Positions 24,001-63,932 are shown, counted from the first letter of the stretch. The stretch: DNA of 64,000 nucleotides from Candidatus Obscuribacteraceae bacterium (GCA_044226015.1 JBGAHS010000008.1:192001-256000), one strand, 5' to 3'. Notes: generated from the letters alone by a model not told the origin. A program made the numbers and translations.

Positions 24001-25390
24001 AGTTGTTATCACTCAGACAACTGGACAGATGACTGTCAATGGCAACATAAGCGCAAGCGGAACGAATGCGCTTATCACATTGATGGAGAAAGCTAACAAC
24101 GCAAGCTCTGGCATCACGTTGAACAACTCGACACTGTCCACAAACTACACAACCAAGCCAACTGGTCAGACAACATTCCCAATGCCTGGTCAGATAAGTG
24201 TAGTCATCGGCAGCACCATTCCAACGACACCAGATCCAGGAAGCACACCATCTAATGTCTCCGTAACTGGCAACCATGGAATCTACACCGCATACTTCGG
24301 CAGCAATTCAGCCAACATGAACGTGACCGGAAGCTCCGCAAACAACGTGCTCACCATCGTCGGCGACACAGCGATTGTCTTCTCACCAGGTACAACATCC
24401 AAGATCAACTTGAATGGAACTGGCACCGGAGTCAAGATCACCGCTGACCCACCGGCGGCAGCCCCAATGCTGATGGTGCAAAATGGCGCAGCCCAAGTTT
24501 CAGGCAGCATCCAGAGCCACGTGAACGCAGCAGCGCAAAATGCAGCAGAAGGCTTCCAGATGATTCCGAGCGCTAACTCAATCTTCGCACCAGCGATGAT
24601 GGCTCCTCATTACGAACTGCCAGCAGCTAACGCTCCAAGCGCTGTGATGAATCCATCCAATCCTAAGATGCTTCAGGGTGGTGTAAGTGACTTCGAAGCT
24701 GCGGTCGACACCGCAATGGTCGAAGGAATCGGAGCAGCAATGCCAGCATTCAGCAACGAGAAGATTGGCGAAGTCGATGCAGGCGTCACAAGCGACAAAG
24801 ACCTGGGAATCGCAGCCGACATCTCCAATCTGAACAAGGCTGGACTCACAGCAGAGGGCAGAAAACTCGTTAAGCTGCAAAAAGGCTTCATGGTCTTCGC
24901 TCCATTCACCGACACTACCGTCGAAACACCATTCGGTAAGGTAGAAATTGACGCTAAGTCAGTCGCAATGGTCTGCGCTACACATGGTGGCACCGCAGTA
25001 TTCAACTTCGACGACACGCACCGTGATGCAATCACGATTCACGTCGGCAAGAACAAAGTCTCAGTTGCACCTGGACGCCATGTCACCGTCACCCATAAGG
25101 GAGTGAAGGGCTTCGATCAGGTCAACCCTGTTGAAGCAATCGGATATCGCGGTATCAATTCTGCTGATCTCTCTGGCGGCTTCCGCGTCTACAACGCAGA
25201 GTTCTCTGTTCCATCAGCAGTAGGAGCAATCAAACCGTTGAAGCAGCTGTTCAACTCCAAGAACAACGAAGCTCAGAAACTCACGAGCCACTTGATGAAG
25301 ACGGTTGCAGCAATGCTGCAAGCCAACCGCAGCGGAGAGCGCTATCAGCAAGTAACTCGCCCGAGAATGTCCGCATTCAACAACCAGTAA
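2..25390 (+). CDS. Giant FHA-like beta-helical repeat surface protein A (5'-truncated, >8,460 aa) with conserved C-terminal FecR-like domain
   Basis: Uninterrupted frame from the window edge to TAA at 25388-25390. The GTG at 5 is probably an internal Val, as no signal peptide or RBS is visible. G/S/T/N/A/I/V-rich beta-strand repeats, recurrent 'LSxxxLxxIxAxxLxIG' inserts, strong bias to AAC/AGC/GGC/ATC codons. C-terminus clearly homologous to gene B. Confidence 0.9.
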   Translation, partial: VVGGDITNTGGTGSVVVDSATGSVTTARVESHGAITLGNTSGGTGVTINGAILNTGGSGNIQLLANSGDISGLHTLTSVGDLTISNINGSIGSTTAIGNLFGGGAGKTITVNAGSTGRVGSITNDSASGNGGTITVTTTAAFQSTGAVSAQSTAGSAFSGGIISIKSSSGTVEVDGSVNSNTTGTGTAGSISIDAGTGTLEINKGSAGANVIQGTLSSDKGNVIVQSNSILLRGASPAITGRNIGLNARTGDIQAAVAGQGGLSATNNIAMTAVTGIGTVGGNPITISSSGSTLSSKTSSSGSTYISVTSGNLTVGNVSVGPVNPNTGVQAPGSIQIDVPGNLAILDGSPINTTGTSQTIDIHANSFTGSGTTTTLIDAGNTGSVLIAPTTNGQAIALGGSGYLSGTMLSKIKALNLQVGNLGTYTGSVTLAGLINNGTAAAGSTAGSYNLSILSNGTIDTSAFTITTNTSNLTIDSEESTSGTATKVGALIGTGGNISVTGNKGVTLAGVINNAGTGTISVLAKQGTLDVQNNTISTTGTGTVTINNLNGAISNVGSVSGAGVINIGNASGTTSISITTGTIDNTASSTNSAVNILSSGAISAAGRSVNSDGVITLSGNGGVTIGGLNNSGSGVASAIHVNDGTEGGAVSIGAVSSVGSIAIGNNSNTAGVTLTNGAIDNSTASTPQSISIRSNTVGISGNGHNVISTGTITLSSNSGPVVIGALNNSGVGASGDIFVNSGSETGAITVDAINSRGDINVGNSTGTAGVTLTGVINNSSAASAKNVTILANNSGISGAGQTVTSIGNITLRAPGGVNIGALNNSGASTAATINVNDGTQSGTIAVAGALSRGTITIGNSTGTSGVTISGAISNATAASAQSVTVHSASGGISGAGQSISSIGSIVLDGVGGVNIGDLTNSSSTTAAAIQVNNGTQSGAVAVGNVNSVGAISIGNNTATAGVTLNGNISNVTASTPQSVSILSDSVGISGAGKTVSSLGGITLSSDTGAVSIGALTNNGVGAAGDVNVNSAAETGAVSVGAINSKGAVNVGNTASASVTLNGLIDNSSAASAKDVSVLASGAISGGSNTITSVGNITLRGNGGVSIGALNNSGASSAASVLVNDGTEAGSVSVGSISSKGDITVGNSTGSTGVTLGGDINNSSASSPQAVTILSSSGGINGTGRAIDSLGAITLRAAGGVTIGTLTNSGTGAAGDVSVNDQTQSGVVSVGAISSKGAVKLGNTSSTSVTLGGNIDNSSAAAAKDVTILAAGALNGSVRTITSLGNITLRADGGVTIGDLDNHTGSGSVSVNDTNQNGALVVGAVTSTGNITLGNLTNTSGVALNGDLDNHTNASSDILVYTATGDISNTVVRSINAGHAFDIEASNGSIGNTAPLGNLTAGGAASKITAKGVIGAGDVTNHGGSISIVNSDNTASGSTTVGTVDTSGAAGGTISITGGNDVSAVALNSSATSTTAGSITVDVSASTNSKISVLGAINASGATNGNFVHLYADNGSSVSSSIRVNNGINTSGSGLAGDVEVKVGSVGTLIVNADNGATGNNTIGSITATGASGGSVLLENKAGSVAFGRTGNAVNSFGTITVNAANIVGSAVGSGKLNSTTGVNLNVFSGSGNIGDASTQVQVNAPSIKIGQTGDVSGAVNPTKIGINSLSSGALTVSNLTNAGTGLTASGDIYISNNGGFNINKDISSSGSGTITLAALSAGNILSVGGGTIVSTAGSAVLSTADGSIGSNSPVYNPVLTNVAQLQANATNGSVYVSDADALTINASSGASSGAFDVRLSGSGDLTVAAPVSAQSVNLASNQGSGTAAGNIVVNSGVTATNGSLTLSAGAGGGAGAVGSINLNSALSATGGNVNVSSSVNGGDINVGAQVSATSGDINLDAQGSASKIAITASGLNPALKTTSSGNVILSSGTGGLTSSGNAIIISSVGDIDASALGGDVNSSGTGNGGAVDFSASNGFINLGSNNIVSSGTTSGTGGTVTLHAKDAVTAGNITAKGVGTSQAGGVVDITSSSVLAPIVVGNIDNTGTANGSSVTVNAAQNIVTVGSVKSNGAITIGNSSGATGIILNGDISNSGGTGSVQLLTNTGDISNATSRNISAAGALTINAGGNIGNTVALGALSAGGGANALTVDGNGVIAVGSVSNNAGAVSITNHAVAAGTLSTGAITTDAIGSGTGGKVSLSVVGDLTVNGNLTAKGLGSSNSGGVIELTGSNIRVDGSVDNTSTGSGTAGTTTINTAAALTIHGSAGANTISGTIDSDGNVVVLANGVTLAGAGDAVSALGIGINAGTGAISASLAGGGGLNASTIALNATTGIGSITGNKPIILSATGTVNVGSKATGAAADTYLSITNGSLVIGNETVATGTASVSANGVSSGGNTKIDTTSGDLHISTAISGTNVDLSTTGVGNHIIMDVGAGQIHATNGDVKLTTNGGGISSQGGSLDVLATGGNAIIALSQGANIGTLDLSGQSGATVTIKGQAVDLKGAGSANADITTANGAVSLTSDSGSISNVGSITTGGAKVDLKATGGNIAAGAIDTSAAAGGKLTASATGSITIAGSIKTDGTAGAGGGVDLSSGTSTTVSGSISAKGNAASGGTVSLSSDGLQVDGSINNTGTGTAGISLTNVQSTTFNGIAGINVIAGTINSSGNVEIQSAGVLLAGAGSAISAKGIGINSSAGISATAAGNGGLDAATVALTAAAAIGSAAIPISLSSTGTTLFGSSTSSAATSVQTTAGDLTVGSATVGAISANGISAPGDVTIKVAATKNLSIATGSPVTSSGVGKQINISADSLTGWGTGVLVNAQASGSVSFVTTSNSAMEVAGTYISATQLGQIRAKDVQFGNNGSYTGDITLGGTVNNGNAAAGDAAGGSYNLSLLTGGKFDASGNTINTKVNNLSIDAESSSATAVKTGAIVATGGNVQITGNNGVTLGGAISNSGTGLIDIVSKTGTLDGGDATISSTGTGTISVNNIAGNINNLGAVSGFNSITIGNSSGGTGIVMHGNISNAGGTGNVQILNATGIINGGSFDVSSAGDLTITNSGAGAISFTGGTLKSTGGNIAVTQTGAGALQVAAVDNTSNGSITLNAVLGSTTAGTVTADGGLVTIGNGTTGTGVVLNGDIDNTKTGGGGSGVSVLSGLGGISGGTHSITSDGIVNVTGAGAVSIGAIDNTTGTSTVTVDSTGSTVAVGAVSSKNSISIGSFGSTGVTLSGLIANDGTGASGSVTIHTLSGGISGTQNVQSKGAIDIVAINGDVSMGSVNNASGTGVVNVEASNGISNVGAVTSTSKITIGSVTGAGVNLNGAVSNSGGTGDVIIEANSGAINGGSNNVTSAGDLILSNGSAGGISFTGGTLSTSGGIVSVKTHGTGNSSVNAISSNGGAITVDANNGVTTVGLSGGAVNSGAGAITLGNSTSGTGVTLGGDVSSTGSGNISLLANSGNINGGSNNVTAGGSLTVTLATGAGNISFTGGTLTAKGGSLDVAQNGTGNVVLNDLSQQALGQSVNVDATAGTISVANITAAGGVVNLGNILGNTGITLTGNIDNTAGGAGAAVNVQAGNGAISASTRTITSDGQVFLYAKNAISVGDINNSTGSQSVTIDSTSGAINTAAVTSKGQINIGSNTSASVTLGGKIDNSTSLAGISITASGAIIGGSNSVAGGPGPLVITSKNTGGVSFSGGQISSNSGAITVQSLGTGDTQVAGVNSQGGTVIINAAKGTTTVGFGSNTVSSGSGSMTIGNNTSGGGTGVVVNGDLSSTGTGNIAILADTGSISGASHNVTAGGGLTVNIANGAGTIDFTSGILTAKGGSLIVTQLGTGNITLSSLSQQSTGDIVFVDASAGTVSVGNVNAFGGQVTLGNNGTGAGVTLNGNIVNTKAGGGGSSVTIYAGAGSIAGAGKTITSDGQVLLDSATGTTIGDINNTTGSSTVDLDSNGAISTGSISSNGAITVGSNSTTSVTLGGDISNFGGTGDVSVTAVGAINGGVNNVTAADNLTIHSITSGGITFTAGTLSANNGAVDVASLGAGNTSVNAVSNNGGSITVDASNGLTTVGTVFNTTGNIFLGNSTGGTGVTLNSSVSTGAAGVVSILSNGGSITGNSHPIILGSGTFTVDPTGGSVVGLGAVTSSGTINIGSATTGSISITGKLDNSTGVGKDINIQSGSGAGGISTVALSSSGNINVRTINTSTGDVTVTGKINAVTGSGDVTVDAKSGQVSVLGIVAKGNIALGNSSTGKGVILNDDIDNQETGATGTLTISAANGGISGVHDLFSNSTISVNAVAGDVTIGTADNSTGSASITVAAANGITTISGASSDGGFVSIGDGATGTGVVLNGNIANTKTGGGGAGVLVLSGLGGISASGRSITSDGQVDVLGQNAVSIGNIDNSTGSGTVNVNSNINTTSVGSVTSQGAITLGNSVGGTGVVMNGDVKSITTGGAISINSASGTINGNSFNTFTQNGSITINPGTGNVTALGDVQTKAGVINIGTSDGISSTASGVSINGTVDNSTSVGSALNILSNTGGVKTGNVSGGGAVNLKSLTSGDVDLGSTISANGVLSISAAGTGSIKSGAASALSGIGVKLTANTLALANGSSINAGGSTVVIDPNANQSMGVNVTGASTETFLVSNDLLSNISNTSLVTLGNNSTSGGLNFYNSLTTGYNLALRNAGGITMKSGSTLAVGANDLTIAAGGAVSLETVTASTAKIDVSGSSVTFNQAFGGTSADVKLTANSGSLSGAGTVSASKLDMSASDGSITLSTAVAGTMKAVTSGTSAGNIALVNTGALTSFTASSGGAASTVSLTNTGDVILGAAGVSGPAGVTLKLGGAAGVALTTTGSSISSSNGDVAITTDVLNGSGSISSSATGKVSIETSTAGRAINLVAGSGGLLLSTAQLAAISTKTLVVGSDTATGSITLGGALDITGKYDLELRQAGAGGSVTTTGQTLTLGTQNLTVNADTVDTGDVTGTGSSTIIILSLTGVNVHGALAADRIGIRAFNGSIVGAGGSLSANQIALRATANVGSPLQILGNSTLGAQGGTGVNLVSTGDMTVDAVTVGPVSASGIVSGGNVTVALASNKNLQLNSAISAPGQTIQLNADKLNGWAATPTLIDAGTSGAVVISTASTTQNIQVGGTYISTTQLGQIKALDLQIGEVGVYNGNISLGADLTTGAQPAGQASGSYNFALVTKASIDTSGHSITINGNDLILNADTSVTAGKVVGTGGNISIFGKNAGITLTDTLTTAGAGDISLSAQGGTIDGGIKALAAGSGTVSVVNTAGNITNLGSISSAGLVGVDGSTGVALAGTIDNTASTSNDIVSIISAGGAISGGQNINSNGAISVTTLAAGAITVGALDNSTGNGSVTVNSAAGSISVGQIKSTNAITLGNLTGAQGVTLNGTVSNAGGTGDINISTKSGSIDGTFDVSAAGSLSISSAGNVGKNAALGNLSAGGGSNFLSISSAGAIAAGKLTNAGGFIQANTSSTTEAVTLGDISSKASTGGTVIISGGSNISTGAIDTQGTSGDGGDVNVNNSTGLTLVGGSITADGAASGGSGGAVGLFGKGVTVNGSISSKGFGGANVGGSISIDALTGSTQVDGSINNSTTGTGGVNGTIAVVSNPGLTVNGSTAGANVIKGQVISSGSVTLQSINDVILAGAGDAVVARDIGIESSAGAIKAAAAGEGGLNASTIALTSITGIGTSTAAINITGAGPTSIGSSTGAADTFIASTNALTVDNTNVLGISANGVSGSGDVTISVGSGNLHVNAGSTIASGTSNSITLNTNSISVGAGASINAGVLGTVNLRPTTASTAINLGSGASGLIVTQGVLNVITAKTLNVGSSSSTGGINANSAVDISGLYDLNLTQGTGGAIDTSGGAITIGSQALTVLTPAGITLGAVSGTSGTVDLIGSTVDFKGNVNLNAVGSKLTVGSGGDVTQTVGTTLTARRIDINVTSGNIGGAGSIATSTGVLNLLTSLSGNAKVTNSGAGSVTLNSSTFGSLTFSSDDTIDVGSSGVAGSAVSLSTTANNGNINALNGSISSSAGNLDLTANGSGAVTVGTNRSVQAVGGDVNIKSDSITLQGKALITDTAAIISGNNVNFTGNTANGTFTSGAMLISNSGTVTANTGNINVNSASNQDMQLTGDGNGNWNATTSNASINFTASANGSLKLGLGDQTFTVGPNGSPGGSVNFTADGSETSTVQILPGVTYQFPNDYTHVVVNVGQFLGNPSQFNIHPSGGNPNSTLTIQGKFSGTIANSTGPIDLGNITNLNFAGPIAILSATDIFSSSSRTITVTSTVTNNGGSLTMIAGYAFTPTTVGTIGPTGQEYTLDVPNSKGGNIDLSNVSIDTRGQNIGGNVNLAANGSITLSNIDTRATGANGPGGSITVYGNGITANGTINTAGTGTSSSGTVTLSSGAVSAVNGTTIQDGFVTSAGGFTAAFSVPSTTGSLSTGASSSINAGSVNLSAGSTTLAGSITGTGVNIASNTLSSTGTINAGTGTVQIQTVTAGRGINLLSTGTGTLDLSNGTLSSISASKLIIGSASASGAITLGGALDISSKYNLELRQGGAGGTVTTTGQTISLGNKALSIAAGGAVNLGTYTGSGSAVDISGSSVTFNSAAGNASDTTSVVATNGNIGGAGALTSNDLSLAATNGSIGIAGTPFLTVNNGKLHAGSVASNSGIYINNTGNITGLTAFTLGAVDLRSSGGATLDGTVHGDTGVILNMTTGKLDNAGFLISSTNTPIAITTDSIALSGTTSIDAGTSTVTITPTTASRAINLGTATGGLDISEAALNSISAKTLTIGSTTTTGGITVGGALNITGPYDLNLIQGGSGAYTASNAITIASTGGAYSVSTAAGAINSGNITNNSTTNSKVLLQTGTANINLTALVPVAHDIELIAGGIGTGSTTGAINGLSNGAVSGTLTITPTLSGTDAGTVVLRGNNLLTGAVGQPTKFVLNVSSAAGNAGKAVFERTATTALIPTSANVSLQINSTSGNQGTAVLSNGGDLTYATTGSPSITTGSSGKGADITLTAGSVAAGKLVVSGNLSANGASGFAGGKLTLNSNSTTAFTIGATKATNGITGSMSVTGTPNGDITITNRGGGITESVAITNVSNYKLDTTGATNGTLSISKAITASNSVTLIAGGSGTINPGANVITAPTVALTSGTGAITVKTAASTISANMIGTSGTGAVSITNASGNVTLLDSSARGAFSLTNSTGNITTNAITAGGNVTVKTTKTNAAVAVNGNVTGGASSTVSLTANGTGSISGTGTVTGKTVTLTTGTGAIGTGTALGTALKVKAVSLSANTQGSVNLDNLGNGSSTFTITASASKSSFTVNSATPIVINPALTNVTSANITTSGVNAITLKASIGNTTTTTAINVSTGSGNILSSGTLSTTAAGNVTLGTTGSIGSSTAAVKVNSPTLAVNGASHTLLNLNSTRTAGVNVTTDLASTGIATFTSSGPTTLLGVSGTNVVLKSVGNTTLNGDIIASGTLSLTETGSGTTTMAVGKNISAAGKVTITTVGATTLNNVTSTAGAIALTAKGALTTNDITSNSTTSGAVTISQTAVGASTFGAITGQSVTVNLIPNSSTVKNNVNFNGAITASNGLVKISETGTSNALQSTIFAGGAAIQASGNVTVTTMGAASLLGVSSGVGGAGSITITTKGTTSVGALDANGSTTTGSITLNQTGGGSTTLNSTANADGAISITSSGVTSGVGIQTSGAVTAAGNVTLKATGSNAGVTLGDNVSSANTSTGTVAITASGSGNLTQTAGAVSAKTITLTSSTGSIGTGTALGTAFKVSSLASAFTLSANTKGAANINNTSAVPMTLSAASTDANTFTLRSSGNLTLTAPLTNASAIVIDTTAAGVGVGNVAINGSTLGGSSKTTAVSISTNDGDVSAKGTITTNNVSGSGVTLASTTGDFGTKTAAVKMNTPSLLSANVGGLLNVSNTNTGSTTYGAITAKSVTLSTANNSTFNGNISTSGGTGEVVITQTTGQMTVNGNISASGTNALITLMEKANNASSGITLNNSTLSTNYTTKPTGQTTFPMPGQISVVIGSTIPTTPDPGSTPSNVSVTGNHGIYTAYFGSNSANMNVTGSSANNVLTIVGDTAIVFSPGTTSKINLNGTGTGVKITADPPAAAPMLMVQNGAAQVSGSIQSHVNAAAQNAAEGFQMIPSANSIFAPAMMAPHYELPAANAPSAVMNPSNPKMLQGGVSDFEAAVDTAMVEGIGAAMPAFSNEKIGEVDAGVTSDKDLGIAADISNLNKAGLTAEGRKLVKLQKGFMVFAPFTDTTVETPFGKVEIDAKSVAMVCATHGGTAVFNFDDTHRDAITIHVGKNKVSVAPGRHVTVTHKGVKGFDQVNPVEAIGYRGINSADLSGGFRVYNAEFSVPSAVGAIKPLKQLFNSKNNEAQKLTSHLMKTVAAMLQANRSGERYQQVTRPRMSAFNNQ
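1688..3983 (+). repeat. Eight tandem ~96-aa (~287 bp) coding repeats in gene A
   Basis: Recurring unit 'GxIxxGNxxxxxGVTLxGxIxNSxAxx...GxITLxxxGGVxIGxLxNSG...VNDGTxxGxVxVGAIxSx' read from the translation; eight units between 1688 and 3983. Confidence 0.85.
10020..11990 (+). repeat. ~329-aa (987 bp) tandem duplication in gene A
   Basis: 'LTAKGGSL...LSQQ...VDAxAGT' occurs twice. The GCGAAG (Ala-Lys) marker is at 10475 and 11462, 987 bp apart. Boundaries approximate. Confidence 0.7.
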
Positions 25391-25412
25391 ACACACTGCA
25401 TCGCGAGATCAA

Positions 25413-25445
25413 GAAACCCGCCCGAGCCCAGCTCCGGCGGGTTTC
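25413..25445. terminator. Probable bidirectional intrinsic terminator between convergent genes
   Basis: GAAACCCGCC-C-GAGC-CCA-GCTC-C-GGCGGGTTTC: 10-bp perfect stem extended by 4 bp, starting 23 nt after the gene A stop. The stem ends in TTTC on + and TTTCTT on -. Confidence 0.8.
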
Positions 25446-25512
25446 AAACTTAGAAGACAGTTACTTACCCAGCTTTTGGATCTCATCAATTCCTAGCAGG
25501 GCAGCCGGTCTG

Positions 25513-25839
25513 TTAAAATTCTCTCCACCAGGCGGAGCCATCACTGTGAATCGCGGGAAACTCAATTTGAGTTCTTTCGCCTTCTCCGTCTTCTATAAAC
25601 CAATTCTCGTCAATGTCTTCAGGAATATCAAAAGGCGGGTCATTTTCTCGATTGCATTCAGTGGTCCAAAACTCCCAAATATGCCGGTAAGGATCTGCAG
25701 CAGGTGTCAGCTGAATTAGCCCGCCCATCCACGGAAAATCCGAATCCAAATTAGTTATGGTGCCGACAAGTTCAGAACCTCGGAAAAGCCTCAGCTGCTC
25801 CTTCCCGGTGAATGACGGCATGGGTCTGGAAACTGACAT
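25513..25839 (-). CDS. Small acidic, Trp-rich hypothetical protein (~108 aa)
   Basis: ATG at 25839 is preceded by SD-like GGAAGGGTGAGG. Protein-like sequence LRLFRGSELVGTI...SDFPWMGG...IHSDGSAWWR. Fills the gap between the giant genes and ends just before the terminator. Confidence 0.75.
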   Translation of the reverse strand: MSVSRPMPSFTGKEQLRLFRGSELVGTITNLDSDFPWMGGLIQLTPAADPYRHIWEFWTTECNRENDPPFDIPEDIDENWFIEDGEGERTQIEFPAIHSDGSAWWREF

Positions 25840-25943
25840 AGGAAACCTCACCCTTCCACTCGCAAGAACTTCTCAGGAATAACACCTTTACAAGCATTTC
25901 ATTGTGCCTAATAGCTCTGGCTCGTTGTATAGGCGTCCACCAC

Positions 25944-28900
25944 TTACTCTTGCGGAGCAAAAGCTGCCATACGTGGGCGAAGCACTTGCTGGAAGCGTTC
26001 GCTATCCTTTCTTACCTGAGACATAGCAGCAACCGTCTTGGCGATATGAGCTGAAAGTTTCTGCGCCTCTGTCTGTTTGGAATTGAACAACATACGCAAG
26101 GATTTTATTGAACCGAGCGCCGATGGAATCGAGAACTCCGCATTGAATGCCTTCAAACCATTGCCCAATTCAACAGAACTGATTCCGCGATAACCCACAG
26201 TTTCAATCGGGTTGATTTCGCCAAATTCCTTGACGTTGCTACCCGTTATTGCAAGATGGCGACCAGGGCTCAAAGTGATTGTCTTATGACCTGAGTGAAC
26301 TTTGACAGCATCTCTGTGTTGATCATCTAAACAGAAGACAGCGAGTCCTCTGGCGGAAGTGAACACGATTGCCACAGACTTCGCATCAATGTCGACCCGA
26401 CCGAATTGAGTCTCAATAGTCGTATCCTGGAACGGCGCAAACACGAATGTACCTGACTTGAGCGCAAGCATCTTTCTCTGGTTTGCAGCAGTAGTGACAC
26501 TCTTCAGTTGGCTTCCTGCAGAGCCGAGACCGAGCTCACGCTCGCTTGCAAGAGGAACCACGAAGCTGCCACTTTCGGACATGCTCGCTTCAAACGCTGG
26601 GGCACCAACTATGGTGCTTAAGCTTTCGCCTGCATTTGTGAGTTCTGTCTCTGTGACACCTCCATATAGAGTCTTCGGATTTGAGGGATTCACCAGAGCG
26701 TTGCTGCTTACAGGAATTGGCTCAATCCATTGCTTGCTGACACCTGGCGGAGCAGCGAAGCTAACACTGGAAACACTGGGACTTACAAGAGAAACTGAGG
26801 TCTCAGCAACCTTGCTCGAGCTTGCGTATGTTGGAGCCACGAAAGCTGCTGTCGAGGTCTTTGAGCCAGCAGACAAAGTAGCAACGCTCAAAGTTGGTGC
26901 GCTGAGAACAGCAGGTGGATCTGCAGTAATGTTCAAGCTGCCACCCAGAGTGATGGTTCCCTTGCTGCCAGATTGGAACTGAATAGCAGTATTGCCAATG
27001 ACAGCCAGGTTGTTGTTGGTTCCATTCACTACAAATGTATTGTTTGTGCCCCAATAGACTTTATTGTTCGGTCCAGTTGCACCAGAGAGGTCGACGTTAA
27101 TGACTGGAGCCGAAGCCGGCTGAGTACCAGCAGAAGGTGCTGGTACTGTCGAACCAACCACGATAGTGACCTGTCCGGGAAGTGGGAATGTGCTACCTGT
27201 CTTAGGAGTCGTCACCTCGGTGCTGATGCTACTGTTGGCACCAAGAACGATGCCAGCGCCGGCGGCGTCAGCCTTCTCTTGCAGGGTGACTTTCGCCGCA
27301 GTGCCCTTGGAAATGATGCTTCCATTCAGGGTTAATAAGCCTGCTGTCTGGATGATGGAAACTGCACCAGTACCAGCAGCACTACTCGTGTCAATCGCTC
27401 CATTGAAGGTCGATTTATTGGCGCTTGCAACGCTTATGGAAGAACCACTAATATTGCCATAAGCAGCCCCTGTGGTGGTGTTGCTGTAGCTGTTACTGAG
27501 ATTCACGGCACCACCTGTAGTGGCGGAGACGAGATTGGGAGTATTTAACTTGAGAGCAGCTGTGCTACTTCCCTGAATGGCTCCCGTCGTGCTCGTCAGG
27601 GTAACCTGACCAGAACCAGCCTTGCTGCTGATAGTCGCGGTACCGTTGATATCACCATTCACTGTCGTTATAGAGACTGAATTGGTGTTGACTGCACCCC
27701 CCAAAGTGCCGCCCTTCAATGTCACGGATGCAACTCCAGTTGTGCTAATTGCGATACTCTCAGCGTTGACCAGGGTCGGCGTGACGGTGAGGTTGCTAGC
27801 AGAGCTCATCGTGAATGTATTGCCAGCTCCAGCAGTATTAGCAGTCGATAGTGTAACAGGTGCAGAACCAACGCTATTCAGATTAATCGTTCCCGTCGTA
27901 GCTGCAGAGACAGAGCTAGTGTTAAGGTTCAACGCAGTCGCTAGCAGCGTACCGGTTCCAATAGCACCAGAACCTGAACCTAGAGTGACAGTCTTAGCAC
28001 TTATCGTGCCCGAGCTGTCCGTGATGTTCCCGCTGCCAATGGCTGTAAGTTTGATGGTTCCCGACGTACTACTAGTGGACACGTTGCCATTCAAAGCAAT
28101 TGAAGCATTTCCTTTATTGTTTTGTATCGTCACGGCGGTCACAGCCTGGACAGGTCCTGTCACAGTGGTTGAACTACCTGAGTTAGTCACAGTGACACTT
28201 GTCCCAGCAGCAGTCAGCGCACCCAGAGTGAGGGGAACGCTCGTAGCTGACTGAGTGACAGTTATGACTCCCTTTGTGCCGAGAGATTGCAAGGCACCTG
28301 TCACTGTGGCACCCTTGCTCACGATTGCGAGTGAACCATTACTAGCAGTCACATTGTTGAGAGTTAGAGCACCAGTGCTTGTCACGCTCACCGTAGTAGC
28401 AGCACTAATGTTCATGCCAAACCCAAAGCTTGTGCTTGGTGTTGTTGAACCAGTTTCTGTAATCTTGACGGCGCCCGTGCTCGCGCTGACGGAACCGTTG
28501 AACAGGACTGAGCCTGTCGGCTTCAGGGTCACGGTCACAGAGCTTCCACTTAAGTTACCGAAGCTTGCGGTGCCGCCAGTTGTCTGAGTTATCGAGATAA
28601 CACCGGAAGGAGTGCTAACAGAATTCAGAGCAATATTCCCTGAGCCACTCAGAGTGACTGCACCGTTGGCTACGATATTTCCGGCAACAGTGGTGCTAGC
28701 AGCACCTGTTATGGAGATGGCTCCAAGTTTACTTGCGGTCAAACCGTTCGCTGTAATATTGGAAGCAAACGTGTTGTTTCCAGCTAGCTTGAAGGTCAAG
28801 TTACTACCCTTCACTGCACCGAAGTTAGACGGACCAGCACCTGTGTAAGAGATGCTTCCGCTGGTAACCAGGTTACTCACCTGAGTAGTTCCCTTGTTGG

Positions 28901-59776: not shown

Positions 59777-60334
59777 ATGAAACCAGAAATAATTGTGATT
59801 GGAGCATCGCTTGGAGGACTGATGGCATTGGAAGAGTTGCTCGCAAACCTTGATGCTACAATGAGCGTTCCAATAGCCATCGTGCAACATCGCTGTAAAA
59901 ATGAAGGACAAAATTTACTAGCAGCACTGCTCCAAAAACACACATCGCTGACTGTTGTGGAAGCTAAAGATGATGACGAGCTGCGGGGTGGCACAGTCTT
60001 TATCGCGCCACCTGATTTACACTTAGTGGTTGAACGAGGACACTTCAACCTCTCTGAGGGCCCACCTGTGAATTACGCTCGCCCCAGTGTAGATCGTTTG
60101 TTCGAAAGCGCAGCCTACTCGTATGGCAGGGCTGCGCTTGGCATAGTACTAACGGGCGGCAACACGGATGGAGCAGTCGGCTCGCGTACAATCAAAGAGA
60201 ATGGTGGAACTGTGATTGTGCAAGAATTGGAAGAATGCGAAGACACACACATGCCGAGAGCAGCCCTCGCAGCAACCTCCGTTGATCGCATACTTAGATT
60301 GCGTGAGATTGCTGCACATCTAAACGCGCTATAA
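59777..60334 (+). CDS. cheB: Stand-alone CheB-type methylesterase (no receiver domain)
   Basis: Motifs IVIGASLGG (catalytic Ser), IVQHR (His), RPSVDRLFESAA, GIVLTGGNTDGA (Asp) and MPRAAL. AGGAAG RBS upstream. Confidence 0.93.
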   Translation: MKPEIIVIGASLGGLMALEELLANLDATMSVPIAIVQHRCKNEGQNLLAALLQKHTSLTVVEAKDDDELRGGTVFIAPPDLHLVVERGHFNLSEGPPVNYARPSVDRLFESAAYSYGRAALGIVLTGGNTDGAVGSRTIKENGGTVIVQELEECEDTHMPRAALAATSVDRILRLREIAAHLNAL

Positions 60335-60366
60335 GACAGTTTGTTGGCACGAATGCTCATCGATTG

Positions 60367-60455
60367 GAATGGATCAGTGCTATAGAGTAGATTGGATCAG
60401 AACTATAGAAAGATTGGATCAGAAATATAAGAAGATTGGATCAGAAATATAGAAG
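60367..60455. repeat. Four tandem 22-23-bp direct repeats (consensus GATTGGATCAGAAmTATAGAAr)
   Basis: GAATGGATCAGTGCTATAGAGTA (60367), GATTGGATCAGAACTATAGAAA (60390), GATTGGATCAGAAATATAAGAA (60412), GATTGGATCAGAAATATAGAAG (60434). Confidence 0.9.
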
Positions 60456-60505
60456 CACTGAAATAGAATAACTTGAGGATGAACGCCAAATAAAAATTTG
60501 GTCAA

Positions 60506-60778
60506 TTAAGCATCAGTCTTTTTCATCGCTTTAGTTATTATTTGGCGAAGTCGTTCCCATAACACATTCGCTTCATCGTCCTTCCCTCTCGAACTCAGAA
60601 ACTCAAAGTATTCAACTAATACCTGTCCAAGAAGTGGACTATCTTCACCGGCAATAGACTCCGCTAGACTTATGGACCTTTCAAATAGTTGCGTTGCTTC
60701 CTCGTCGAGCTGCTGCTGTGCAGATTCCTTCGCCCTTTCGACAAGGCTGAAAACCAATTGTTGCTTCGGAAGTTTCAT
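60506..60778 (-). CDS. Small TPR-like helical protein (~90 aa)
   Basis: EEATQLFERSISLAESIAGEDSPLLGQVL...RGKDDEANVLWER resembles kinesin-light-chain-type TPR repeats. Start uncertain (ATG 60778 or TTG 60811). Confidence 0.7.
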   Translation of the reverse strand: MKLPKQQLVFSLVERAKESAQQQLDEEATQLFERSISLAESIAGEDSPLLGQVLVEYFEFLSSRGKDDEANVLWERLRQIITKAMKKTDA

Positions 60779-60906
60779 TTTTTGCGACAAGCTATGCAAA
60801 ATAGCCTGCAAGAGAAGGGGCGAATGTAGCCGAAATACACGGAGAATTACCGCAAGCTATTTTCGCAGATTTGTAAACAGCATTGCAATTTTCACAAGAA
60901 CATTGA

Positions 60907-63099
60907 TTAAGGAAGCTCAGAACCATCCAGATTCACAAATCCTTTCTGACGGGCACGCTTTCCTTTTGCAATCGAGTCAATGATTAGCGCTACATTTTCT
61001 GCAGGACACAAGATACTTTCCCAAGTACACGACTGTGCTCCCAGACATTTCAACATTTCCTTATCCCGCTCCAATTGCAATAAAGCATCGGCTTGCATTA
61101 CGGTAACCAACTCCAGTTCCAAACTTGGAATCACGGGCAACCTCCTGTAGGCAAGCAAAATGCGGGTAGCAAACTCGTATTCCTCCTGGTACAGACCCGC
61201 CTCTTTAAGATCACTCAAAAGGAAACGCATATGATCTCTCTTGCTATGTTGGCTAAGGGATGGAATGCTGAGATCCGCTTTCCGCACGCAGTTCAGAAGC
61301 TGTTCCGTGGCAGCTGTTTTCCGCCTGAGGAAGTCCAACATGCATTGTTCTGACTCAAACCAATCAGCATAGTCTTTATAGGATGTGCGCGAGCGAAGCA
61401 CAGAATCACTTTCTGCAGCAATTTTTTCTCTAGCTAGCGTAAAGCAGTACTCCGCCAGGTCAACCTGACCGTGCCTCCTGGTGAAAAGGCACGCAGATAA
61501 CAAATCATCAGAGTCACTCATACTTTCAACAAGCTCATGAGCAAGTTTTTTGTCCCTCAATTCCATAAAGACACTTAGCATTCGCATGGCTAGGGCGTCA
61601 TTATCGCACGCATGAATTAGCGGCTCCAAAACCTTCACAGCTGCACCATCTTCTTTCAACGCATGCAAACTCTGAGCAGTACAAATCCTGGCATAAACAA
61701 TCTGTGTAGGAGTTATTTCGCGGGTTCGTCTTCTCTCTTCAGGAGAGACAGGATTTGGTATGTCGAGGTTGACCGCTATCGAGCCTTCAGGCAGTTGCTT
61801 ACCAGCAAGTGATTTTGCCTCAGCAATGCAATCTTTGTAGCGCTTTGCCAGAAACAAACAATCACATAGCGAAAGCTTGATGTAAGTCGGGTTATATAAC
61901 GCAGAGAGTTTTTGATTAAGTGCTCGCAATTCAAGAAGTTTGCCAATGGCGAGATCAAGCATTCCAGCTCGTCTTGCGGCTCTATACTCATCAAACATTT
62001 GTTGAACTTTCAACAAATTCGGATTCGTATTTCCCATTACCTTTATTCTGTTTTTTTGAAAGACTGCCAAACCTTGCTCAGAGTTTTTTGCTTCGATTTT
62101 GATTTCACTTTTGGCACGATCTCTCATTGCTTGAAAGCAAATCAGCGAAATTGCACCTAGCAGCAAAAAGCCCAGCCACGTAGCTGCAATCAGTTTATTT
62201 GTAATTAGATTCTTACCACGCCTGCCACTCCGACTGCCAGCTGAGACGAAATTGAAATCAGTAGAGTCTAGATCTGCGACGAACTCATCGACAGATTGAT
62301 ATCGCTGTTCAACAGATTTTGCCATCGCCTTTTGGAAGACAGCATTCAGTTTGCGAGCCGCAGGTTCTCGAGAATCCAAAAGCTCTGGAGCCGGGGTGTT
62401 TATGTGTTGATATAGCATTCCAATGGGATTGTCAGCCTGAAAAGGCAATTTGCCATGCAGCATTTCGTACAAGCACACAGCTAAAGAATAAATATCAGAA
62501 CGTGTATCCACTACTTTTCCTGCTGCCTGCTCGGGGCTCATGTAATTGGCCGTACCAATCAAAGTGCCAGTACCAGTCAAAGTTCTTGCAACCTCGTCTT
62601 TTAGAATTGAACGAGCCAAACCAAGATCGATTAGCTTGACCGTGTCAGACTCAGGCACATCTGTGAGAATAATATTCTCAGGCTTCAAATCTCGATGTAC
62701 GACTCCTTGCCCATGAATGGCGCTTAACCCGTTGCCAATTTGCCGAATCATGCGAACCACCGCCTGTAGTGGCAGGTGTTCTGCATGCTGCAACTTCGCG
62801 CGAAGGCTCGGACCTTCGATAAATTCCATTGTGATATAGCAAAATCCGGACGGGCTAACACCCATATGATAGATACGAACAACATTTAGATGGTCTATTC
62901 GACTGAGAAGATTCGCCTCGCGAATAAATCGCTCTTGTGAGTCGTCGTCTTGCATAAGTTCAGCATGGAGTATTTTCACCGCCACGATGCGATTGAGATC
63001 CAACTGACGAGCGCGAAAAACGGTGCCGTTTCCACCGCTACCAATGAGTTCAAGCAACTCATAGCGCTCATCAAAAATTTCGCCTACTTTAGGAAGCAT
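60907..63099 (-). CDS. Hanks-type (Pkn2-like) Ser/Thr protein kinase with a TM segment and a C-terminal helical/TPR-like domain
   Basis: Kinase motifs IGSGGNGTV, VAVK, HRDLKPEN, DLG (in place of DFG), GTANYMSPEQ and DIYSL. Hydrophobic LIAATWLGFLLLGAISLICF, followed by an ~400-aa helical region. Confidence 0.95.
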   Translation of the reverse strand: MLPKVGEIFDERYELLELIGSGGNGTVFRARQLDLNRIVAVKILHAELMQDDDSQERFIREANLLSRIDHLNVVRIYHMGVSPSGFCYITMEFIEGPSLRAKLQHAEHLPLQAVVRMIRQIGNGLSAIHGQGVVHRDLKPENIILTDVPESDTVKLIDLGLARSILKDEVARTLTGTGTLIGTANYMSPEQAAGKVVDTRSDIYSLAVCLYEMLHGKLPFQADNPIGMLYQHINTPAPELLDSREPAARKLNAVFQKAMAKSVEQRYQSVDEFVADLDSTDFNFVSAGSRSGRRGKNLITNKLIAATWLGFLLLGAISLICFQAMRDRAKSEIKIEAKNSEQGLAVFQKNRIKVMGNTNPNLLKVQQMFDEYRAARRAGMLDLAIGKLLELRALNQKLSALYNPTYIKLSLCDCLFLAKRYKDCIAEAKSLAGKQLPEGSIAVNLDIPNPVSPEERRRTREITPTQIVYARICTAQSLHALKEDGAAVKVLEPLIHACDNDALAMRMLSVFMELRDKKLAHELVESMSDSDDLLSACLFTRRHGQVDLAEYCFTLAREKIAAESDSVLRSRTSYKDYADWFESEQCMLDFLRRKTAATEQLLNCVRKADLSIPSLSQHSKRDHMRFLLSDLKEAGLYQEEYEFATRILLAYRRLPVIPSLELELVTVMQADALLQLERDKEMLKCLGAQSCTWESILCPAENVALIIDSIAKGKRARQKGFVNLDGSELP

Positions 63100-63278
63100 T
63101 TTCTCATACCATAATCAACGCCATATGATGACATACTCAATGAAAATTCTCTGCCACCTCTCTGACAATACTACGCAAACTCTTGACGACGAGCTTTCAA
63201 TCGCGAGAACCCAGGGGCTTCCAGCTGGGGCGACTTACTCTTAATTGCACTATTTCCAAAATACGAAAGAAACAAACG

Positions 63279-63311
63279 TAAAACCCGGCATTCCACGTCT
63301 GCCGGGTTTTA
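63279..63311. terminator. Terminator-like hairpin in a divergent intergenic region
   Basis: TAAAACCCGGCA-ttccacgtc-TGCCGGGTTTTA, a 12-bp perfect stem. On the - strand it runs into TTTTACGTTTGTTTCTTT. Confidence 0.65.
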
Positions 63312-63455
63312 TTCAGCATAAAACTCTTTTCCCACGTGACTGAAAGTCGTGCGACAATTTTGATATGCGCGCTCAAGACTGAGCGAATGTTACTTCTGGT
63401 TTCCGCGGAGTTTGGCCGAGATATCAGCACGTTTACGCCCCACACCGAACAAAAC

Positions 63456-63932
63456 ATGAAAGTCGCCGTATTAGCTGACACGCACATTCCGAAAAGAGCA
63501 AAGAAGCTGCCAGATGCAGCGGAGAGGCTTTTGCATTCCGCAGATTTGATAATTCACGCCGGCGATCTAATCAGCGAAGAATTCCTGGAGCAACTGCGAG
63601 ACATCGCTCCATTGCATGCAGTCTTAGGAAACAACGATAAAAATCTTGATTTGCCCGATAGCCTAGAACTTGAGCTAGAGGAAGTGAAGCTTGCGATCAT
63701 TCATGACTCAGGAAACAAAAAAGGTCGCGGCAAGCGCATGAGAAAGCTGTTTCCCGAAGCACAGATAGTTATTTTCGGACATTCTCATGTTCCAATGAAT
63801 CTGGACGAAGACGGAATACGGCTCTTTAACCCTGGGTCGCCTACCGACAAACGAATGCAGCCCGAAGCAACTATGGGGCTCATCAACTTGAATAAAGGAG
63901 AGTGGGATGCGAAGATCATTCCGCTTTCCTGA
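63456..63932 (+). CDS. Metallophosphoesterase, YfcE/MJ0936 family (158 aa)
   Basis: MKVAVLADTH (DxH), HAGD, GNND, IIH, GHSH and NPGS calcineurin-like motifs. The family-typical N-terminus fixes the start at ATG 63456 rather than GTG 63336. Confidence 0.92.
   Translation: MKVAVLADTHIPKRAKKLPDAAERLLHSADLIIHAGDLISEEFLEQLRDIAPLHAVLGNNDKNLDLPDSLELELEEVKLAIIHDSGNKKGRGKRMRKLFPEAQIVIFGHSHVPMNLDEDGIRLFNPGSPTDKRMQPEATMGLINLNKGEWDAKIIPLS

Follow-up and report, generated by a model that had tools for sequence, protein, structure and literature searches.

Two convergent giant genes, A and B, lie in a 64,000-nucleotide stretch of DNA from Candidatus Obscuribacteraceae bacterium (GCA_044226015.1 JBGAHS010000008.1:192001-256000; hereafter the window, and the genome holding it G000), and each encodes a tail domain at its C-terminal end. 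The domain family it represents is real, has not been described and runs through the whole order, and it comes with an export puzzle. We give a probability of about one half to the reading that the tail is a predicted FecR-fold module serving as a periplasmic tether for giant TpsA-like surface proteins.

The initial annotation had described the two domains as alignable almost without gaps. The domains, of 176 aa and 177 aa, indeed form a single ungapped block with 98 identities in 176 positions, scoring 537 against a maximum of 61 among 1000 shuffles, and the motifs quoted for them are present. The switch in composition described there was seen as well: the passengers, 60-70% G, S, T, N and A, have net charges of -243 (A) and -172 (B), while the charged domains are at +10 (A) and +7 (B). 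A sole cysteine had been placed inside each domain, and each protein does have just one, in that domain; its position differs between A and B, however, and domains across the family have 0-5 cysteines, so the residue does not characterise the family. As close paralogues (47% across the first 655 aa and 41% across the last ~2,000), A and B alone are no proof of the variable passengers that had been proposed, although the family as a whole does show them. In a second sample, X2 from a separate study, two contigs cover both gene ends with 21 differences, which excludes an assembly artefact at this locus. The features of the locus, in window coordinates, are:

2-25390 (+), 3' part (8,462 codons) of the gene for protein A, a giant of 14,391 aa; whole gene at G000:C12:174215-217390
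24437-24859 (+), low-complexity stretch of A that begins with the ITADPP motif and leads up to the domain as a linker; start hand-counted from the sequence
24860-25387 (+), C-terminal domain of A: predicted FecR/CJM-type beta fold and three basic helices
25513-25851 (-), open reading frame (ORF) of 112 aa between the convergent giants, without Pfam match and probably unrelated
25944-58850 (-), protein B, 10,968 aa, wholly inside the window
25947-26477 (-), C-terminal domain of B
26478-26930 (-), low-complexity linker of B, ITADPP to domain; hand-counted
57441-58718 (-), N-terminal domain of B, residues 45-470: predicted beta-helix like those of two-partner secretion (TPS), with a conserved Asp-Pro at its end
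58725-58850 (-), likely signal peptide of B for export by Sec; its N-region is basic, its core hydrophobic, and an Ala stands near residue 42 (from sequence reading and a heuristic)

Protein A as an 8,462-aa protein was rejected, since its ORF spans 14,391 aa and starts ~17.8 kb before the window. Beyond the window, its N-terminus matches the profile of the giants' common N-terminal domain at E 8e-144. Its G/S/T/N-rich passenger is likely a beta-helix. By eye, an inverted repeat right 3' of the A stop (25413-25445) looks like a terminator, possibly for both convergent units.

A profile seeded with the A and B domains only found 41 domains and converged near 70 after four iterations; among 45,558 reversed ORFs, neither profile gave a match at E 10. 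The domain thus extends well beyond the two genes: 64 called genes of G000 carry it at E < 1e-8, values that are not independent because the profile was built from these same sequences. The last copy ends at most 45 aa from the C-terminus in 62 of the 64 carriers, as expected from the constant terminal position that had been suggested, and six carriers hold two copies. The proposed attachment to diverse, probably signal-peptide-bearing proteins is likewise supported by the family. A loose signal-peptide heuristic was passed by 53/64 carriers, compared with 1,671/4,259 other proteins. Net charge of the domain is positive in 92% of the 64, and all carriers except one, a kinase, are without a membrane helix past residue 90. 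The tail terminates 48 giant proteins; carriers account for 47 of the 77 genes of at least 1,500 aa in G000 and sum to 203,968 aa, or 7.5% of the genome. The giant genes are dispersed (8 adjacent pairs among 48), with no common neighbour gene around them when the G000 neighbourhoods were read by eye. Of the remaining 16 carriers, which do not have the N-terminal domain of the giants, one is a hybrid histidine kinase; the others are fragments, Pro-rich forms, or proteins made of a signal peptide and one or two copies. The exact ITADPP pattern occurs in 9/50 large carriers, where it marks the start of the linker in one subfamily. Conversely, two giants of ~3,050 aa (G000:C10:420504-429701 and C10:433155-442265) have the N-terminal domain and no tail; both stop, past the linker motif, in acidic sequence, with no tail gene downstream. 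G000 also holds a second set of giants, 3,600-7,750 aa long (C12:364671, C9:323696, C11:406378, C3:280331 and C3:294415), with acidic N-termini, no tail and, by eye, no signal peptide.

The resemblance to FecR suggested in the initial annotation is supported by profile-profile alignment and by a predicted model. Comparison to FecR with hhalign scored 41.9 and 37.4, whereas 20 shuffled or reversed alignments reached no more than 10.7. The model consists of a CJM-type twisted beta-solenoid followed by three helices and the chain end, and its structural match to PupR ends at residue 251; the STN subdomain that follows the CJM is absent, three basic helices being predicted in its place. None of 42 members reached the cut-off of the Pfam FecR family PF04773 (best inner copy 18.8 bits vs. 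24), and the carriers do not have the anti-sigma domain plus single membrane helix of FecR/PupR regulators. Gly-Thr had been noted as missing, and neither A nor B has it (KS instead); across 232 family rows the dipeptide is GT in 33, GS in 49, GA in 50 and KS in 35. This self-cleavage site is not universal among FecR/PupR regulators (PMC7186176).

Lineage restriction had been put forward as a check, and the family shows it: a profile from a 42-row alignment matched 70 of the order's 75 other genomes and none of 175 other genomes of the class. In a phylum sample, 1/300 genomes matched, weakly (E 2e-4), with a protein that belongs to Pfam FecR. The order would be Obscuribacterales, judging from two relatives named 'Candidatus Obscuribacterales bacterium'. 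A library of 50%-identity clusters returned 2,745 matches (E 0.001), of which the best 150 were used for position, length and taxonomy; all of these 150 end at most 40 aa from the C-terminus, and their median length is 1,258 aa. A 2,939-aa match on an 11-kb contig is labelled as a Phycisphaerales metagenome-assembled genome, which is either misbinning or a true outlier. In another genome, at G333:C3:174649-175185, the domain lies at the end of, or inside, an open frame of 25,007 aa. Searches with P0001, P0002 and four small carriers gave no NCBIfam family at E 0.01 and no Pfam match. Full-text literature searches, whose coverage excludes most subscription journals, found no paper on the family, and in a term search the main text of a giant-gene survey (10.1101/2023.11.21.568195), whose supplements may list such proteins, mentions neither the lineage nor FecR.

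At the opposite end of the chain, all 48 giants share one N-terminal domain. The top four structural matches of its model are TPS proteins, with a margin over generic beta-helices of ~2 Z units, so a TPS-like fold is predicted. The TPS family PF05860 was not matched by the giants, nor did the control genomes give a PF05860 match, and an NPNG-like motif is present in 3/48 giants only. A Gly-Asp-Pro at the close of the domain was found by pattern in 41/50 giants and is invariant in 12 alignment rows; this and the Asp-Pro of the linker motif ITADPP are possible self-cleavage sites.

TPS passengers are defined through their TpsB partner (PMC5422565). The TpsB profile PF03865 had no match in G000 and 9 weak matches among 61 genomes of the order. 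These were rejected as TpsB, five being 44-57% identical to the G000 Omp85 and the other four overlapping Omp85 matches; as a control, all five other phylum genomes searched with this profile gave three matches each, none worse than E 2e-25. The Omp85 profile PF01103 matched exactly once in 70/76 genomes, twice and partially in one, and not at all in five, which are 64-91% complete. POTRA_2 matches fall in the Omp85 ORF or its fragments, except for seven in ORFs of 153-373 aa. The G000 Omp85 has no paralogue by phmmer and lies upstream of genes that we take to be skp, lpxD and lpxC, a position as expected of BamA. Secretins occur in 75/76 genomes, 2-3 in most, and their number does not rise with that of the giants; a PilQ orthologue was found in one of five giant-bearing genomes tested and not in the other four. 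G000 has gene sets for a type IV pilus and for Tad (two of the latter), and its TolC-family genes number about 15. A CpaC-type secretin of 893 aa (G000:C7:127562-130243, L069) stands apart from both Tad clusters and is a tandem pair in many relatives. Elsewhere, at L119:1477-8168, a cellulose-synthase-like gene is accompanied, as read by eye, by a long TPR gene and one for a predicted beta-barrel. A co-occurring outer-membrane protein, which the initial annotation had suggested looking for, did not appear among the families profiled, namely Omp85, TpsB, POTRA_2 and secretins. With a predicted TPS-like start but no gene detected for a partner transporter, the giants probably exit the cell along a non-standard route. 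Their export signal is likely the N-terminal domain, and the transporter likely not a TpsB; by exclusion, BamA would be the translocator.

The tail is also found away from giants. Among five genomes without the giant N-terminal domain, four have 1-3 tail matches, all in ORFs of 314-463 aa, and 5/7 proteins recovered from giant-free genomes are orthologues of a 312-aa G000 protein in which a signal peptide and a Pro-rich stretch lead to a V-P-T-D motif and then the domain. This core stand-alone member (~320 aa; G000:C9:607534-608472, L071; also L139, L140, L142, L144 and L146) is the most widely kept, and stand-alone proteins with 2-3 copies exist as well. Its gene often adjoins a Ser/Thr kinase, a TPR-CHAT gene or, by eye, a membrane glycosyltransferase-like gene, the last a lead towards glycosylation of the passengers. 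As the domain is more widespread than the giants, it was probably recruited onto them. The hybrid histidine kinase (G000:C6:296935-300378, L072; orthologues L148-L152) is present in G000 and 5/7 genomes of its genus and is nearly confined to that genus. In G000 and the five orthologues its tail domain precedes a single membrane helix and the His box, placing it in the periplasm. The V-P-T-D motif follows the domain in the kinase (3/6 loci) and precedes it in the core proteins.

The topology of the kinase fusion fits the periplasmic retention that the initial annotation had raised as one role of the tail. In the tether model, the giants, with their signal-peptide-like N-termini, would be exported by Sec, and the common N-terminal domain would act as the outer-membrane signal. 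With no TpsB found and one Omp85 per genome, the single BamA might double as translocator; as in TPS proteins, the passenger would thread N-terminus first and fold outside. The tail, last through Sec, would then fold in the periplasm as a stopper or docking point, probably binding a common partner via its conserved helices, and cleavage in the linker would free the giant protein. The same module, by its topology in the sequence, would be the periplasmic input of the sensor kinase. The current FhaB model has the C-terminal part retained, though the same preprint shows that this part can also be exported (PMC13232309). A lasting plug in BamA would be harmful, so tethering would have to be brief or at another site. 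A CpaC-type secretin, TolC or an unrecognised pore is a possible route for the giants. Only tentatively, and with more doubt than confidence, do we propose a one-partner type Vb system in Obscuribacterales, in which the single, essential BamA also translocates TPS-like giants by the dozen, the largest reaching 25,000 aa, while a periplasmic stop-transfer tether derived from FecR couples their display and release to sensor kinases.

The tail could instead be mainly a signalling domain inherited from FecR-CHASE2 systems, binding a periplasmic partner and reporting the state of the giants (threaded, cut or shed) to inner-membrane kinases. The kinase fusion would suit this, as would the wide retention of the core member without giants, often beside a Ser/Thr kinase or TPR-CHAT gene; moreover, one of the four canonical FecR genes of G000 directly precedes a CHASE2 kinase, an arrangement described in Burkholderia (PMC5192318). 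We consider it unlikely, given the near restriction of the fusion to one genus, the lack by eye of a consistent kinase or sigma-factor neighbour at the giants, and the missing STN subdomain, which is the signalling interface in PupR.

Less probable again is a sorting signal for a lineage-specific outer-membrane machine, like the type IX secretion system (T9SS), from which folded cargo exits, for instance via the CpaC-type secretin. A C-terminal position nearly throughout, on short and long cargo alike, the restriction to one order and the ubiquity of secretins agree with it. The idea of a transporter-recognition module like the T9SS C-terminal domain (CTD) is nevertheless weakened by the separate TPS-like N-terminal domain on all 48 giants, by the two tail-less giants, which speak against the tail being necessary for export, and by tails outside giants, on a kinase of the inner membrane and on short proteins where giants are missing from the genome; nor do secretin numbers or the distribution of PilQ follow the giants. 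Most doubtful to us is that the tail is exported with its passenger as a common outer tip for self-association or for binding the giants to an acidic cell surface. The basic charge, the tandem copies in six G000 proteins and in stand-alone proteins, and an FhaB C-terminal domain found exposed (PMC13232309) point that way, whereas the kinase fusion topology and the solved relatives are periplasmic, and one would expect an adhesin at the tip to change with its passenger, not to stay constant.

Genomes throughout the order encode as many as ~50 TPS-like giants each, yet one Omp85 gene. Either BamA translocates soluble beta-helical proteins or an unknown pore exists. Omp85 translocases include TpsB and chloroplast Toc75. 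If BamA translocates, this would bear on how Omp85 translocases arose from insertases, in a lineage sister to oxygenic cyanobacteria. The tail family, which has no Pfam or NCBIfam model and numbers 2,745 or more clusters when grouped at 50% identity, is also a surface-protein marker for common uncultured sludge bacteria. Outside the giants, the window has ordinary genes at 59777-63932: a CheB methylesterase (59777-60334, +), a Ser/Thr kinase (60907-63099, -) and a metallophosphoesterase (63336-63932, +).

How does the tail compare with known systems? T9SS CTD, PEP-CTERM and MYXO-CTERM are likewise constant C-terminal domains on many proteins in one lineage, signal-peptide proteins there and probable ones here. 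In contrast to them, the tail has a different fold, no terminal membrane helix (63/64), no NCBIfam or Pfam match, and no processing enzyme or translocon identified. Type Vb TPS systems (HMW1A/B, EtpA/B, HxuA/B, FhaB/C) share with the giants the order of signal peptide (a likely one in the giants), conserved N-terminal domain (modelled there as TPS-like), long G/S/T/N-rich passenger and distinct C-terminal part. The giants differ in the absence of a detected TpsB in the order and of a PF05860 match, in scattered genes with no transporter neighbour, and in being about 50 paralogues with one constant FecR-fold tail. The LapA-type retention module of type I secretion adhesins offers the same idea, namely that a periplasmic domain, once folded, keeps a giant adhesin in its pore; the giants, however, have opposite polarity and likely Sec signal peptides, and an RTX-like nonapeptide occurs once in A and never in B. 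With the FecR family (PupR CJM, PDB 6OVK/6OVM; BDI_1681, 4M0H; PF04773) the tail shares its predicted fold, while it lies below Pfam detection, has neither anti-sigma domain nor membrane helix, replaces STN with three basic helices bearing a K[T/N/M]AA...G-Y motif, has Gly-Thr in 33/232 rows, and caps giants, of which a genome may have dozens, extending the FecR fold past iron signalling. Like the FecR/CHASE2 kinase pairs of the Burkholderia biofilm operon (PMC5192318), the family has soluble periplasmic FecR-fold proteins tied to kinases; it is far diverged from those pairs and mostly without a kinase neighbour, and one of its subfamilies is fused to the kinase itself.

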